24,178 bases of DNA from a virus (lineage: Duplodnaviria; Heunggongvirae; Uroviricota; Caudoviricetes), in IMG/VR virus record IMGVR_UViG_2537561992_000036. The stretch is one strand, 5' to 3'. A program made the position numbers. Of this stretch, positions 1 through 12,000 are shown piece after piece. Every line of letters begins with the position of its first letter. The first letter of the stretch is position 1.

Positions 1-3000
1 TTACTTCTTCGCCTCTGCAACCACTTTACTACCCACGCCGCGGTTATTGTATTCCCACATGCGGTTGTAGTTAGTGTCATTCAGATTGCGCTGTATTTCG
101 TCGTTATCATCTACGCTGCCGGTATTACCCGCAAACGGACGATTAGAGATCACCGCATCGGCCCACGGTTTAGCCGTGTTAAAACCTTCGTTGATGGCGC
201 TATCACGGATCACCACCTGACCGTTGGTATTGGCATCAACATCCAGCGAGCGGCCCAGTTGCGCCACACCATCACCGAAAGCATTGAAACGGCTGTTTAC
301 GGCGAGGAAACCGTAGTAAATGTTGGACAGCGTAGCCGGTGCAAACACATACGCTTCTTGCTGAGTACGTGAGTTCACCACGCGGAATTCGGTGTTATCG
401 AACACCACTGCGCCGCGACCAGAAACGATATCCACATCCCCTTCAATGTAGCTGTTGGTCACCAGCGTACGCGGCTGACGATTCGTTTCCAGACGGTTCT
501 GCACACCGCTGTTGGTGACAAAGAAGGTGTTCTGACGACCGAGAATGTTAACGTTGTTAATCTGTACCTGGTCACCATCAGTACGCAGTGCCACCGCCGG
601 ATGGTTACCTGCATCTACGCTATCGCCCAGCGTGTTTTCGATGGTCAGATTTTGCAGTTGCAGGCCATTGTTTTGTGACCAGAAGACCGCAGAGCAGAGA
701 ACACCGATACTGTCGCTGCGTTTGCTCTGGCAGCTATCGTACATATACCACGCTGGTTTACCTGGCATATATTTGCCGCGCGGGTTGACGTCGTGACGCC
801 AGTCGGCAGGGCTCATGCCACCATCAAGGGAAAGCCCAATCTTCACATCAATCGGTTTTTCACCTGTACCGTACAGAGTAATTCCACCCGGAGCGGCAGG
901 GACATATACCGTTCCCTGATACTCACCAGGCATCACGGCAATATACTGGCGCTTGTTGGTACGCTTGATAATTGCCGCATCTACCGCCGCCTGAATCGTG
1001 GTATGCGTTACACCTTGAGTGCCCGCCGGGCCGACAACAAAGTCAGGTTGCGCAGGCAGGGTAATCGGGGAAGGATTCCACGCTGCTGCACCTGGTGTCA
1101 GGGATGCAAAATAGTGTTGAGCATCGAAATTCTGCGCTTCTTTTGCCGACAGAATCGGGCGAGAAGAGGTACCAGGCGCGGTTTGATCAGAAGGACGTTG
1201 ATCGGGCGGGGTTGAGCTACAGGCGGTCAGCGTCACGCCAAAAGCCAATGCCAGCGCCAGACGGGAAACTGAAAATGTGTTCACAGGTTGCTCCGGGCTA
1301 TGAAATAGAAAAATGAATCCGTTGAAGCCTGCTTTTTTATACTAAGTTGGCATTATAAAAAAGCATTGCTTATCAATTTGTTGCAACGAACAGGTCACTA
1401 TCAGTCAAAATAAAATCATTATTTGATTTCAATTTTGTCCCACTCCCTGCCTCTGTCATCACGATACTGTGATGCCATGGTGTCCGACTTATGCCCGAGA
1501 AGATGTTGAGCAAACTTATCGCTTATCTGCTTCTCATAGAGTCTTGCAGACAAACTGCGCAACTCGTGAAAGGTCGGCGGATCCCCTTCGAAGGAAAGAC
1601 CTGATGCTTTTCGTGCGCGCATAAAATACCTTGATACTGTGCCGGATGAAAGCGGTTCACGATGAGTAGATGCAATTATGGTTTCTCCGCCAAGAATCTC
1701 TTTGCATTTATCAAGTGTTTCCTTCATTGATATCCCGAGAGCATCAACATGCAATGTTGTAGGGATGGCAATTTTTACGCCTGTTTTGCTTTGCTCGACA
1801 TAAAGATATCCATCTACGATATCAGACCACTTCATTTCGCATAAATCACCAACTCGCTGCCCGGTAACAACAGCCAGCTCCATTGCAAGTCTTAGCCAAC
1901 ATGGTGATGATTCTGCTGCTTGATAAATTTTCAGGTATTCGTCAGCCGTAAGTCTTGATCTCCTTACCTCTGATTTTGCTGCGCGAGTGGCAGCGACCGG
2001 GTTTGTTGTTATATGGCCTTCAGCTATTGCCTCTCGGAATGCATCGCTCAGTGTTGATCTGATTAACTTGGCTGACGCCGCCTTGCCCTCGTCTATGTAT
2101 CCACTGAGCATTGCCGCAATTTCTTTTGTGGTGATGTCTTCAAGTGGAGCATCAGGCAGCCCCCTCCTTATTGCTTTAATTTTGCTCATGTAATTTATGA
2201 GAGTCTTCTGCTTGATTCCTCTGCTGGCGAGGATTTTTTCGTAGCGATCAAGCCATGAATGTAACGTAACAGAATTATCACTGTTGATTCTCGCTGTCAG
2301 AGGCTTGTGTTTGTGTCCTGAAAATAACTCAATGTTGGCCTGTATTGCTTCAGTGATTGCTATCCTCCTGTCTCGGCCTAATCCAAACTCTTTACCCGTC
2401 CTTGGGTCCCTGTAGCAGTAATATCCATTGTTTCTTATATAAAGATTAGGGGGTAAATCCCGGCGCTCATGACTTCGCCTTCTTCCCATTTCTGATCCTC
2501 TTCAAAAAGGCTACCTGTTACTGGTCGATTTAAGTCAACCTTTACCGCTGATTCGTGGAACAGATACTCTCTTCCATCCTTAACCGGAGGAGGGAATATC
2601 CTGCATTCGCGCACCCATCGACGAACTGTTTCAAGGCTTCTTGGGCGTCGCTGGCGTGCATTCCACTCCTGAAGTGTCAAGTACATCGCAAAGTCTCCGC
2701 AATTACACGCAAGAAAAGCCGCATTGATGCGGCGATGGTAGGTCTGGATATCATTGAGCCATGAACAGGCCTCATCGAGTGTGAGGCTGTGGTTAGTCCT
2801 TTCGTAACTCGCTGATTCTCCTGTAAGTCTCTGGTGCTTTGTTTCCGTGTATCTTCATTTCAGACTTCAACAGAGCAACGAGGGAATCCCATTCGTTGAG
2901 GATGCCTTTGAATGCCGGAACGCGCTTTGCAACCTTGTCGAATGAATCTCTGATTTCTGGAATCTTCTCAACAAGTGCAACGCATCGTCGGAAGTCTGCT

Positions 3001-9000: not shown

Positions 9001-12000
9001 GCGTGGTCTTACGCTACAACAGTTAATTCATATGCTTATTATTTTAATTGCCTTGATAATAATCACCCCAGCATCAATTAAAGAGTGGGTAGATATAAGG
9101 AACCCCGAAATACTTCCAGATCACTGGATGTATTACGCAATGCTTTTGTGTATCAGTTATGTTCTGAACAGGGGGATGGAGTGAACCGCCCCGGAAATCC
9201 TGGAGACTAAACTCCCTGAGAAAGAGGTAAACAGGATGACTAAAAATACTCGTTTTTCCCCCGAAGTCCGTCAGCGGGCGATTCGTATGGTTCTGGAAAG
9301 TCAGGATGAATATGACTCACAGTGGGCGGCAATTTGTTCCATTGCCCCAAAGATTGGCTGTACGCCGGAGACTCTGCGTGTCTGGGTTCGCCAGCATGAG
9401 CGGGATACCGGGGGCGGTGATGGTGGGCTCACCAGTGCTGAACGTCAGCGTCTGAAAGAGCTGGAACGTGAAAATCGTGAACTGCGCCGCAGTAACGATA
9501 TCCTTCGCCAGGCTTCCGCTTATTTTGCGAAGGCGGAGTTCGACCGCCTCTGGAAAAAATGATGCCACTGCTGGATAAGCTGCGTGAGCAGTACGGGGTC
9601 GGACCGGTATGCAGCGAACTGCATATTGCCCCGTCAACGTATTACCATTGTCAGCAACAGCGACATCATCCGGATAAACGCAGTGCCCGTGCGCAGCACG
9701 ATGACTGGCTGAAGAAAGAGATACAGCGCGTATACGATGAAAATCACCAGGTATACGGTGTGCGTAAAGTCTGGCGTCAGTTGTTACGGGAAGGTATCAG
9801 AGTGGCCAGATGCACTGTGGCACGTCTCATGGCAGTTATGGGACTTGCCGGTGTTCTCCGGGGTAAAAAGGTCCGCACTACCGTCAGCCGGAAAGCCGTT
9901 GCCGCATGCGACCGCGTAAACCGTCAGTTCGTGGCAGAACGTCCAGACCAGTTGTGGGTGGCTGATTTTACCTGGGTAAGCACATGGCAGGGCTTCGTTT
10001 ATGTGGCGTTCATCATTGATGTGTTCGCCGGATACATCGTGGGATGGCAGGTCTCATCATCCATGGAAACAACATTCGTGCTGGATGCACTGGAGCAGGC
10101 GTTGTGGGCCCGTCGGCCGTCCGGCACAATCCATCACAGTGATAAAGGTTCTCAGTATGTATCGCTGGCCTACACGCAGCGGCTTAAGGAAGCCGGATTA
10201 CTGGCATCAACAGGGAGTACTGGCGACTCGTATGACAACGCGATGGCTGAGAGCATCAATGGTCTTTACAAAGCGGAGGTAATACACCGTAATAGCTGGA
10301 AAAACCGGACAGAAGTGGAACTGGCCACACTAGCGTGGGTGGACTGGTATAACAATCGACGATTGCTGGAAAGGCTGGGCCATATTCCTCCGGCAGAAGC
10401 AGAAAAAGCTTATTATGCTTCCATCGGAAATAATGATCTGGCAGCCTGAGTTCACAGATAAAATACTCTCCAGGAAACCCGGGGCGGTTCAGCGTGATGT
10501 TGATCGCGCAGAAACAGATTTACTTATCAACCTGTCAACGCTTACCCAGCGCGGTCTGGCAAAGATGATTGGCTGTCATGAATCGAAGATAAGCAGAACG
10601 GACTGGAGATTTATTGCTTCGGTCTTGTGTGCTTTCGGAATGGCATCAGACATCAGTCCGATTAGCAGAGCTTTTAAGATGCGCTTGATGGACTCACCAA
10701 TAAAAAACGCCCGGTGTGCAAGACCGAGCGTTCTGAACAAATCCAGATGGAATTCTGAGGGAATTACTGGATCAATCCACAGGAGTCATTATGACAAATA
10801 CAGCAAAAATACTCAACTTCGGCAGAGGTAACTTTGCCGAACAGGAGCGTAATGTGGCAGATCTCGATGATGGTTACGCCAGACTATCAAATATGCTGCT
10901 TGAGGCCTATTCAGGCGCAGATCTGACCAAGCGACAGTTTAAAGTGCTGCTTGCCATTCTGCGTAAAACCTATGGGTGGAATAACCAATGGACAGAATCA
11001 CCGATTCTCAACTTAGCGAGATTACAAAGTTACCTGTCAAACGGTGCAATGAAGCCAAGTTAGAACTCGTCAGAATGAATATTATCAAGCAGCAAGGCGG
11101 CATGTTTGGACCAAATAAAAACATCTCAGAATGGTGCATCCCTCAAAACGAGGGAGGTTCCCCTAAAATGAGGGAGATCCCTCAAAACGAGGGAAAATCC
11201 CCTAAAACGAGGGATAAAACATCCCTCAAATTAGGGGATTGCTATCCCTCAAAACAGGGGGACACAAAAGACACTATTACAAAAGAAAAAGAAAAGATTA
11301 TTCGTCCGAGAATTCTGGCGAATCCTCTGACCAGCCAGAAAACGATCTTTCTGTGGTTAAACCGGATGCTGCAATTCAGAGCGGCAGCAAGTGGGGAACA
11401 GCAGAAGACCTGACCGCCGCAGAGTGGATGTTTGACATGGTGAAGACCATCGCACCATCAGCCAGAAAACCGAATTTTGCAGGGTGGGCTAACGATATCC
11501 GCCTGATGCGTGAACGTGACGGACGTAACCACCGCGATATGTGTGTGCTTTTCCGCTGGGCCTGCCAGGACAACTTCTGGTCCGGTAACGTGCTGAGTCC
11601 GGCCAAACTCCGCGACAAGTGGACCCAGCTCGAAATCAACCGTAACAAGCAACAGGCAGCCGTGACAGCCAGCAAACCAAAACTCGACCTGACAAACACT
11701 GACTGGATTTACGGGGTGGATCTATGAAAAACATCGCCGCACAGATGGTTAACTTTGACCGTGAGCAGATGCGTCGGATCGCCAACAACATGCCGGGAAC
11801 AGTACGACGAAAAGCCGCAGGTACAACAGGTAGCGCAGATCATCAACGGTGTGTTCAGCCAGTTACTGGCAACTTTCCCGGCGAGCCTGGCTAACCGTGA
11901 CCAGAACGAACTGAACGAAATCCGCCGCCAGTGGGTTCTGGCTTTCCGGGAAAACGGGATCACCACAATGGAACAGGTTAACGCAGGAATGCGCGTAGCC

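Follow-up and report, generated by a model that had tools for sequence, protein, structure and literature searches.

Homopolymer miscalls of the pyrosequencing era, which yield false pseudogenes, are single-base gains and losses that are concentrated in single-letter runs and private to one draft record. Their correction restores known proteins, and indels far outnumber substitutions. The lambdoid prophage described here shares all of these features. Compared to such miscalls, it differs in having one indel outside any run (in a cII-like gene), two indels whose runs are just 2 to 3 bases long, a high overall density, and four indels clustered in the O–P region. Paralogues of that region exist at other places in the genome, and the clustering there points to an added contribution from merged reads of paralogous prophages.

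Cryptic lambdoid prophages that undergo slipped-strand pseudogenisation are likewise decaying elements in which O, P, and xis are no longer needed. In the present locus, however, the lesions of decay are a nonsense codon, a 14-bp duplication, IS629 insertion with an associated deletion and, in relatives, a 67-bp iteron deletion. These lesions are common to independent assemblies, whereas the run-length frameshifts are common to none. Compared to phage lambda, the gene order and the overlaps of xis, O, and P are alike, while cII is another allele, truncated by IS629, and recombination is encoded by ERF-type genes rather than exo/bet.

Source record and comparison set

The window, by which we mean the whole analysed stretch of 24,178 nucleotides, is contig ADUN01000092.1 of the draft genome of E. 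coli EPECa14 from 2011 (GCA_000188755.2). The loci were fetched through the frameshifted products EFZ41255.1 and EFZ41257.1 (E. coli EPECa14), which correspond to exact substrings of the window and are each recorded solely in that contig. No second sequence of strain EPECa14 is on record, and the complete RefSeq E. coli genomes hold no identical copy of the window (top match 99.9%). The prophage is lambda/434-like and lies at the lambda attachment site adjoining ybhC.

Frameshift calls were checked by alignment against lambda (NC_001416), phage 434, and SJ2D, the closest complete genome. The privacy of each difference was judged against six complete genomes from different laboratories, ten further assemblies, and phage 434, and alleles were searched for with exact 81-bp queries in 5,426 complete E. 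coli genomes. Extra relatives and controls were other assemblies retrieved with a 205-aa protein of the 10.6-kb chromosomal backbone that lies left of the window in the same contig. This protein is too common to single out the EPECa14 chromosome, and its matches are other assemblies.

Literature searches on the accession and the strain name yielded no usable statement on the ADUN01 sequencing platform. The ADUN project presumably has the same submitter as its sibling ADUS, of the neighbouring accession series. For ADUS, 454 Titanium reads and Celera assembly are described, a statement that concerns ADUS and not ADUN (PMC3715677).

Table 1. Positions in the window of the genes, repeats, and lesions discussed
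Feature	Coordinates	Strand	Remark
xis as read	2435–2686	-	83-aa ORF; true gene would be 2467–2685
Amber codon TAG, codon 20 of TolA-like gene	8648–8650	-	Common to relatives
IS629-type (IS3 family), copy 1	9177–10492	+	Common to relatives
cII-like gene	10433–10831	+	N-terminus fused to IS629 end; private 1-base deletion
Replication gene O	10791–11727	+	937 bp (939 minus 2); two 1-base deletions
Origin iterons inside O	11138–11260	+	Six copies of a 17-nt repeat
Replication gene P	11724–12426	+	703 bp; 1-base insertion
IS629-type, copy 2	14121–15436	-	Inverted relative to copy 1; found in most relatives
T7 run	18543–18549		Intergenic; T8 in all relatives and 434; private to the window
T7 run	19755–19761		Intergenic, downstream of Q; T8 in all relatives and 434; private to the window
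Dense patch of private differences	21012–21080		Paralogue-like allele, then garbled bases past a T9 run
14-bp tandem duplication, GGCTTACGGTGAAG x2	21391–21418	+	Frameshifts the SASA esterase gene; common to relatives
A6 run	23178–23183		Between genes; A7 in all relatives and 434; private to the window

Single-base indels in genes and between them

Four one-base frameshifts, which the earlier note had assigned to homopolymer runs of xis, O (two sites), and P, are present as placed in the alignments to lambda, 434, and SJ2D. In xis, the plus strand reads AAAAA at 2504–2508, corresponding to T5 on the gene strand, whereas the run is T4 in the aligned lambda, 434, and SJ2D. The reading frame is lost after codon 60, with the final 12 residues altered and the ORF extended to 2435; residues 1–62 match Pfam Exc (PF07825, E = 2e-34). 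Taking one base out of the run yields a protein identical to WP_001303849.1 of the relatives, and 71 of its 72 residues match lambda Xis. Among the 5,426 complete E. coli genomes, 1,983 records have the xis segment, and the exact 81-bp search found the T5 allele in none of them. The frameshifted Xis product is itself absent from the records because xis is not called in the GenBank annotation.

Gene O carries two such sites. At the first, AA at 10983–10984 stands against AAA in the references, and the frame is lost at codon 65, leaving a 90-aa product that is recorded in one contig only; the allele has no full-length exact 81-bp match among the 5,426 complete E. coli genomes. At the second, A5 at 11286–11290 replaces the A6 of the references, and here the same search gave five scattered exact matches among 1,673 records. 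The five carriers are unrelated complete genomes, all singletons and all long-read assemblies; these cases may be errors themselves, or the site may truly slip from A6 to A5. With both bases restored, O becomes a 939-bp ORF of 312 aa that differs by one residue from the 07_3636 orthologue (likewise 939 bp) and by one from the DEC9B paralogue, matches Pfam Phage_rep_O (PF04492, E = 6e-36), and agrees with lambda O at 297 of 299 residues. The iterons within O, six compared to the four of lambda (+39 bp), are in frame and play no part in the frameshifts.

In P, GGG at 11795–11797 stands in place of GG, and the frame is lost at codon 24, leaving a 56-aa product that is again recorded in a single contig. 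With one G removed, the protein is identical to WP_000788880.1 and matches lambda P at 229 of 233 residues; three further substitutions in the gene are all silent. P covers the Pfam profile Phage_lambda_P (PF06992) from end to end (positions 1–162 of 162, E = 1e-61), and its window allele has no full-length exact 81-bp match in the 5,426 complete E. coli genomes.

The claim that all frameshifts lie in runs holds for xis, for both sites in O, and for P but not for a fifth private frameshift, which had been overlooked. In the cII-like gene, a T is missing between 10678 and 10679 (AAGATG compared to AAGTATG in relatives), outside any homopolymer. Putting it back yields a protein identical to WP_000638163.1; the product belongs to Pfam Phage_CII (E = 6e-34), and none of 1,270 records in the 5,426 complete E. 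coli genomes carries the allele exactly over 81 bp. Three private changes of intergenic run length had likewise escaped the earlier list. The dense patch of private differences (Table 1) has its top match anywhere, at 97.0%, in a paralogous prophage allele. The long T and G runs at 18649–18800 and 21068–21078 vary in length even among complete relatives.

Lesions common to independent assemblies

The amber codon, the 14-bp duplication, and the IS insertions had been set apart as lesions of another type, and they are real and common to independent assemblies. Six complete genomes, independent of one another, have the TolA-like gene annotated with an internal stop. IS629 copy 1 has taken the place of N, cI, and cro together with the end of sieB and the beginning of cII. 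The immunity region persists in 07_3636, which also lacks the 14-bp duplication and has an intact SASA esterase gene. Judged from its sequence, the prophage is truly defective, with two IS629 copies and loss of cI and cro, the amber codon, and the 14-bp duplication, all found in independent assemblies. The description of a decaying prophage therefore stands insofar as it refers to the IS629 insertions with their associated deletion, the nonsense codon, and the duplication, but not to the frameshifts in runs.

Probable consensus error and its alternatives

The four frameshifts in runs, the fifth one in cII, and no fewer than three intergenic run changes would most probably (about 0.85) be consensus errors, of base calling or assembly, in ADUN01000092.1. 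Error is favoured over decay because the alleles are private, because correction restores the proteins of relatives, and because the private differences are almost all single-base indels. The earlier note was right to hold its pseudogene calls provisional and to consider that homopolymer runs may have been miscalled; its view that slippage and miscalling fit equally gives way to the evidence, which favours error.

First, the window stands alone at these sites. The six complete genomes and phage 434 carry the other allele at every one of the eight isolated indel sites that they cover, as do the ten further assemblies wherever a site is covered (at least 16 assemblies in total). None of the eight window alleles was found in any related assembly. 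Run lengths that are consistent across a clade have been regarded as authentic and sporadic outliers as suspect (PMC4746626). Lambda-like run lengths from independent sequencing, the result that the earlier note had named as refuting it, are seen in no fewer than 16 other assemblies of this prophage, though not for strain EPECa14 itself. The converse proposal, in which the window is right and the relatives are wrong, was rejected, since lambda, 434, and thousands of copies side with the relatives.

Second, indels are in excess. Outside the paralogue-like patches and the IS copies, the private differences of the window amount to 8 indels and 1 substitution. In mismatch-repair-defective E. coli, coding sequences accumulate 6.02 substitutions compared to 0.85 small indels per gene (PMC8510543). 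At this repair-defective ratio, at least 8 indels among 9 events have a probability of 4e-7, and 5 of 5 among coding events a probability of 3e-5. For the same prophage, 28 indel columns but a single substitution were counted over 16 kb in an evidently error-rich assembly (L023). In L017, a relative that has genuinely diverged, the counts are 16 substitutions and 2 indel columns, and good assemblies show 0 indels. The pattern of the window is like that of the former control and unlike that of the latter. On comparison of these sequences, the 8:1 ratio of private indels to substitutions is the signature of an error-rich assembly and not of divergence.

As to position, runs of at least 2 bases hold 45.7% of the window and runs of at least 4 bases 6.4%; in simulation, four random indels all fell in runs of at least 2 with P = 0.005, and their summed ancestral run length reached at least 15 with P = 0.0006. 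The association of indels with runs exceeds chance, and two of the four runs in xis, O, and P are very short (2 and 3 bases).

Two processes together could have produced such errors. Flow-based read chemistry would give wrong lengths for single-letter runs, and reads from several near-identical lambdoid prophages of one genome may have been merged into one consensus. Because O and P have paralogues, merging would weaken the consensus precisely there. The substitutions in O–P switch between orthologue and paralogue alleles, and the O–P mosaic, even with its indels corrected, occurs in no complete genome (best 99.8%). The real EPECa14 prophage would then have intact frames for xis, the cII-like gene, O (939 bp, six iterons), and P. 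Some observations weigh against error: about 10 indels in 24 kb is a high density for a finished consensus, no error is seen in ybhC (1.3 kb, chromosomal) or in the 8 kb that separate xis from the IS629 copy, and five unrelated complete genomes also have A5 in place of A6 in O.

The strongest alternative, although an unlikely one, is that the changes are real, strain-specific slipped-strand mutations in a silenced prophage of EPECa14 that is free of selection, possibly acquired during a mutator episode. The prophage lacks cI, cro, and pR; therefore O, P, and xis are unselected, and real decay would be tolerated. The IS629 copy in the immunity region, the amber codon, and the 14-bp duplication mark it as truly defective. 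The changes also rise steeply with run length, as in biological slippage (both 8-base runs are changed, compared to about 1/10 of the 7-base runs and about 1/24 of the 6-base runs), and the loss of an A from the A6 run of O is seen elsewhere. Slippage is rare at short runs, however, and three of the eight indels lie at runs of three bases or fewer, one at no run. Nor does the spectrum agree, with 8 private indels against 1 isolated substitution where repair deficiency gives about 7 substitutions for each indel in coding sequence; moreover, the alleles are in no relative, and the pattern fits the error-rich control rather than the genuinely diverged one. It is improbable that EPECa14 truly carries all of the indels, at least 8 in number; the silenced prophage would in that case have gathered run-length mutations with hardly any substitutions, for instance in a transient slippage-prone state or by locus-specific replication infidelity.

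A mixture, in which most changes are errors and one or two are real polymorphisms at the longest runs (A6 in O, the T8 runs, the A7 run), is very doubtful. It could draw on the variable T and G runs of complete relatives and on the A5 allele in 5 of 1,673 records, but at the candidate sites themselves all relatives and phage 434 agree and the window alone deviates, and the five A5 cases, as singletons in long-read assemblies, may be errors. The idea that the runs are programmed frameshift sites or phase-variable switches for xis, O, and P, suggested solely by the location of the indels in runs, is barely credible and was rejected, as the sites are invariant across all relatives, the runs comprise no more than 2 to 6 bases, lambda and thousands of other homologues are in frame there, and the shifted frames finish in short tails that match nothing.

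Consensus error in the draft contig thus being the preferred reading, the run-length frameshifts are most likely not a real feature of the prophage, and their value is that of a caution. Where reads are lacking, error and decay can be told apart by asking whether an allele is private, whether its correction restores the protein of relatives, and how private indels compare to private substitutions. In this record, calling xis, O, P, and the cII-like gene pseudogenes provides no basis for claiming decay, excision deficiency, or replication deficiency of the EPECa14 prophage.

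Run-length changes and their distribution among relatives

The window holds a defective lambda/434-like prophage that adjoins chromosomal ybhC (window 1-1284). Its top phage match is 434 (98.6% identity across 48% of the window), and at least 80% of the window is present at ~99.9% identity in 106 complete E. coli genomes, none of which contains an identical copy. Along the prophage, int and xis are followed by an ERF-type recombination module, kil and cIII, a TolA-like gene, a truncated sieB and then an IS629-type element. Next come a cII-like gene, O, P, ren, ninB and ninE, a second IS629 copy in inverted orientation and the nin region, with genes for LpxR, Q, a SASA esterase, holin and lysozyme at the late end.

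An earlier note had listed four frameshifts in homopolymer runs of xis, O (two) and P, and alignment to lambda (NC_001416), 434 and SJ2D, the closest complete genome, bore out each run-length change. The list itself was incomplete, as the record also has a fifth private frameshift (an allele seen in this record only) outside any run, three intergenic run changes and a garbled patch at 21012-21080. The association of the four indels with runs exceeds chance: in a simulation using the window's own run-length distribution, P was 0.005 for all four falling in runs of at least 2 and 0.0006 for their summed ancestral run length.

Coordinates of private run-length changes, shared lesions and alternating substitutions in the window
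Feature	Position	Window	Other allele	Remark
xis	2504-2508 (minus strand)	T5	T4 in references	last 12 residues replaced
O, first site	10983-10984	AA	AAA in references	90-aa product
O, second site	11286-11290	A5	A6 in references	second shift
P	11795-11797	GGG	GG in references	56-aa product
cII-like gene (10433-10831)	between 10678 and 10679	T lost	AAGTATG	outside any run; fifth private frameshift
Intergenic run	18543	T7	T8
Intergenic run	19755	T7	T8
Intergenic run	23178	A6	A7
IS629 copy 1	9177-10492			replaces sieB end, N, cI, cro, cII start
IS629 copy 2	14121-15436			inverted relative to copy 1
Amber codon	8648-8650	TAG		in TolA-like gene
14-bp duplication	21391-21418			disrupts esterase gene
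Alternating substitutions	11176, 11660, 11700, 11722, 11817, 11826, 12021			orthologue-type and paralogue-type alleles

Single-base correction yielded proteins identical to WP_001303849.1 (Xis) and WP_000788880.1 (P), and restoring the T gave the relatives' cII-like protein, WP_000638163.1. O, at 937 bp two short of 939, became a full 312-aa protein, one residue off its orthologue in 07_3636, a less-decayed orthologous prophage, and one residue off the DEC9B paralogue. Pfam matches to Exc, Phage_rep_O, Phage_lambda_P and Phage_CII were confirmed.

The indel alleles of the window are common to no relative. At each of the eight isolated indel sites, the other allele is present in six complete genomes that different laboratories produced (SJ2D, E2865, UTAK-12, 10153, 2015C-4944 and 07_3636). 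It is also present in ten further assemblies at every site covered, in phage 434 at six of the eight (its sequence is diverged at the remaining two) and in the paralogous O-P copies at the O and P sites. Exact 81-bp queries against 5,426 complete genomes found the xis allele in 0 of 1,983 records and the cII-like allele in 0 of 1,270, and gave no full-length exact match for the P allele or the first O allele; the second O allele matched exactly in five scattered records, all from unrelated strains. A homopolymer-tract survey of another species gives the general rule that run lengths consistent within a clade are authentic and sporadic outliers suspect (PMC4746626).

The A6 to A5 change in O is a singleton in each of those five unrelated genomes, where it lies in other prophages, and O is annotated as frameshifted in the two of them that were checked (RM8426 and Z1816). 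Either the site is a genuine hot spot for slippage, or long-read sequencing makes the same error there repeatedly. At 18649-18800 and 21068-21078, long runs of T and G vary in length even between complete relatives; in the longest runs, run-length noise or true hypervariability exists, good assemblies included.

Probable base-calling error versus strain-specific slippage

Leaving out the IS copies and two paralogue-like patches, the private differences comprise eight indels and one substitution (at 23419). In coding sequence of mismatch-repair-defective E. coli, substitutions exceed small indels at 6.02 versus 0.85 per gene, ~7:1 (PMC8510543). At that ratio, P is 4e-7 for at least eight indels in nine events and 3e-5 for all five coding events being indels. 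Other assemblies of the same prophage served as controls. L023 (GCA_026134585.1, JAOWNT010000001.1), which covers the same locus and served as the error-rich positive control, differs from a good assembly by 28 indel columns and one substitution in 16 kb, and its chromosomal genes (aconitase-family, transporter, integrase) are also split. A genuinely diverged relative (L017) has 16 substitutions and two indel columns, and good assemblies of the same prophage have no indels. The difference pattern of the window resembles that of the error-rich control.

In the whole gene collection, the truncated O (90 aa) and P (56 aa) products (EFZ41255.1 and EFZ41257.1) each occur on a single contig, ADUN01000092.1 of GCA_000188755.2, E. 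coli EPECa14. The loci fetched with them are exact substrings of the window, which identifies this 34.9-kb contig of a draft assembly as its source; xis is unannotated in that record. No statement of the sequencing platform for ADUN01 was found in the literature. The neighbouring accession series, ADUS, belongs to a sibling project, presumably from the same submitter. For that project, the Institute for Genome Sciences used 454 Titanium reads and Celera assembly on strain RN587/1 (PMC3715677).

The earlier note was right to raise base-calling error as an alternative to slipped-strand mutation in a decaying prophage, but its view that the two fit equally does not hold. With alleles found in no relative and a spectrum so heavy in indels, error would be much the likelier source of the four frameshifts (probability about 0.85). 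Real slippage specific to EPECa14, which would likewise alter runs, seems improbable against the same observations.

Lesions shared by independent assemblies

What makes the prophage truly defective is a set of lesions common to independent assemblies. The amber codon, the 14-bp duplication and the IS insertions, previously set apart from the run-type changes, are real and were seen in such assemblies; 07_3636 retains the genes replaced by IS629 copy 1. Six origin iterons (window 11138-11260) and a 939-bp O are found in the window (indel-corrected length) and in 07_3636. Five relatives (L001 and L004-L007) carry a 67-bp iteron deletion, absent from the window, that leaves them three iterons and an O of 872 bp with a frameshift annotation; in these relatives O is a real pseudogene, and a shared one. 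One of them, 2015C-4944 (L007), lacks the second IS629 copy and has the iteron deletion, the reverse of the window; this incongruence implies IS excision, recurrent iteron deletion or recombination.

The cII-like open reading frame annotated in relatives begins inside the IS629 end (window 10433-10500), its first ~22 residues being IS-derived, and the true cII N-terminus is gone with the immunity region. The gene is probably non-functional even in frame.

Possible mixing with paralogous prophages

Substitutions across 11176-12021 alternate between orthologue-type alleles and those of paralogous prophages. Once the indels are corrected, the top match in a complete genome has 99.8% identity and no gaps, and lies in a paralogous prophage at ~3.1 Mb of O26-type genomes; the exact O-P mosaic occurs in no complete genome, even so corrected. 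The patch at 21012-21080, where annotation already marks a pseudogene, has five substitutions and about four indels within 70 bp; 21012-21063 matches a paralogue allele of O157 prophages, and the garbled bases after a T9 run match nothing. A consensus merged from reads of several near-identical prophages would fit both mosaic and patch, and the mosaic could also be a unique gene conversion. The finding of frameshifts in runs of xis, O and P is an ordinary one, and its value lies in the caution that it advises about this record.
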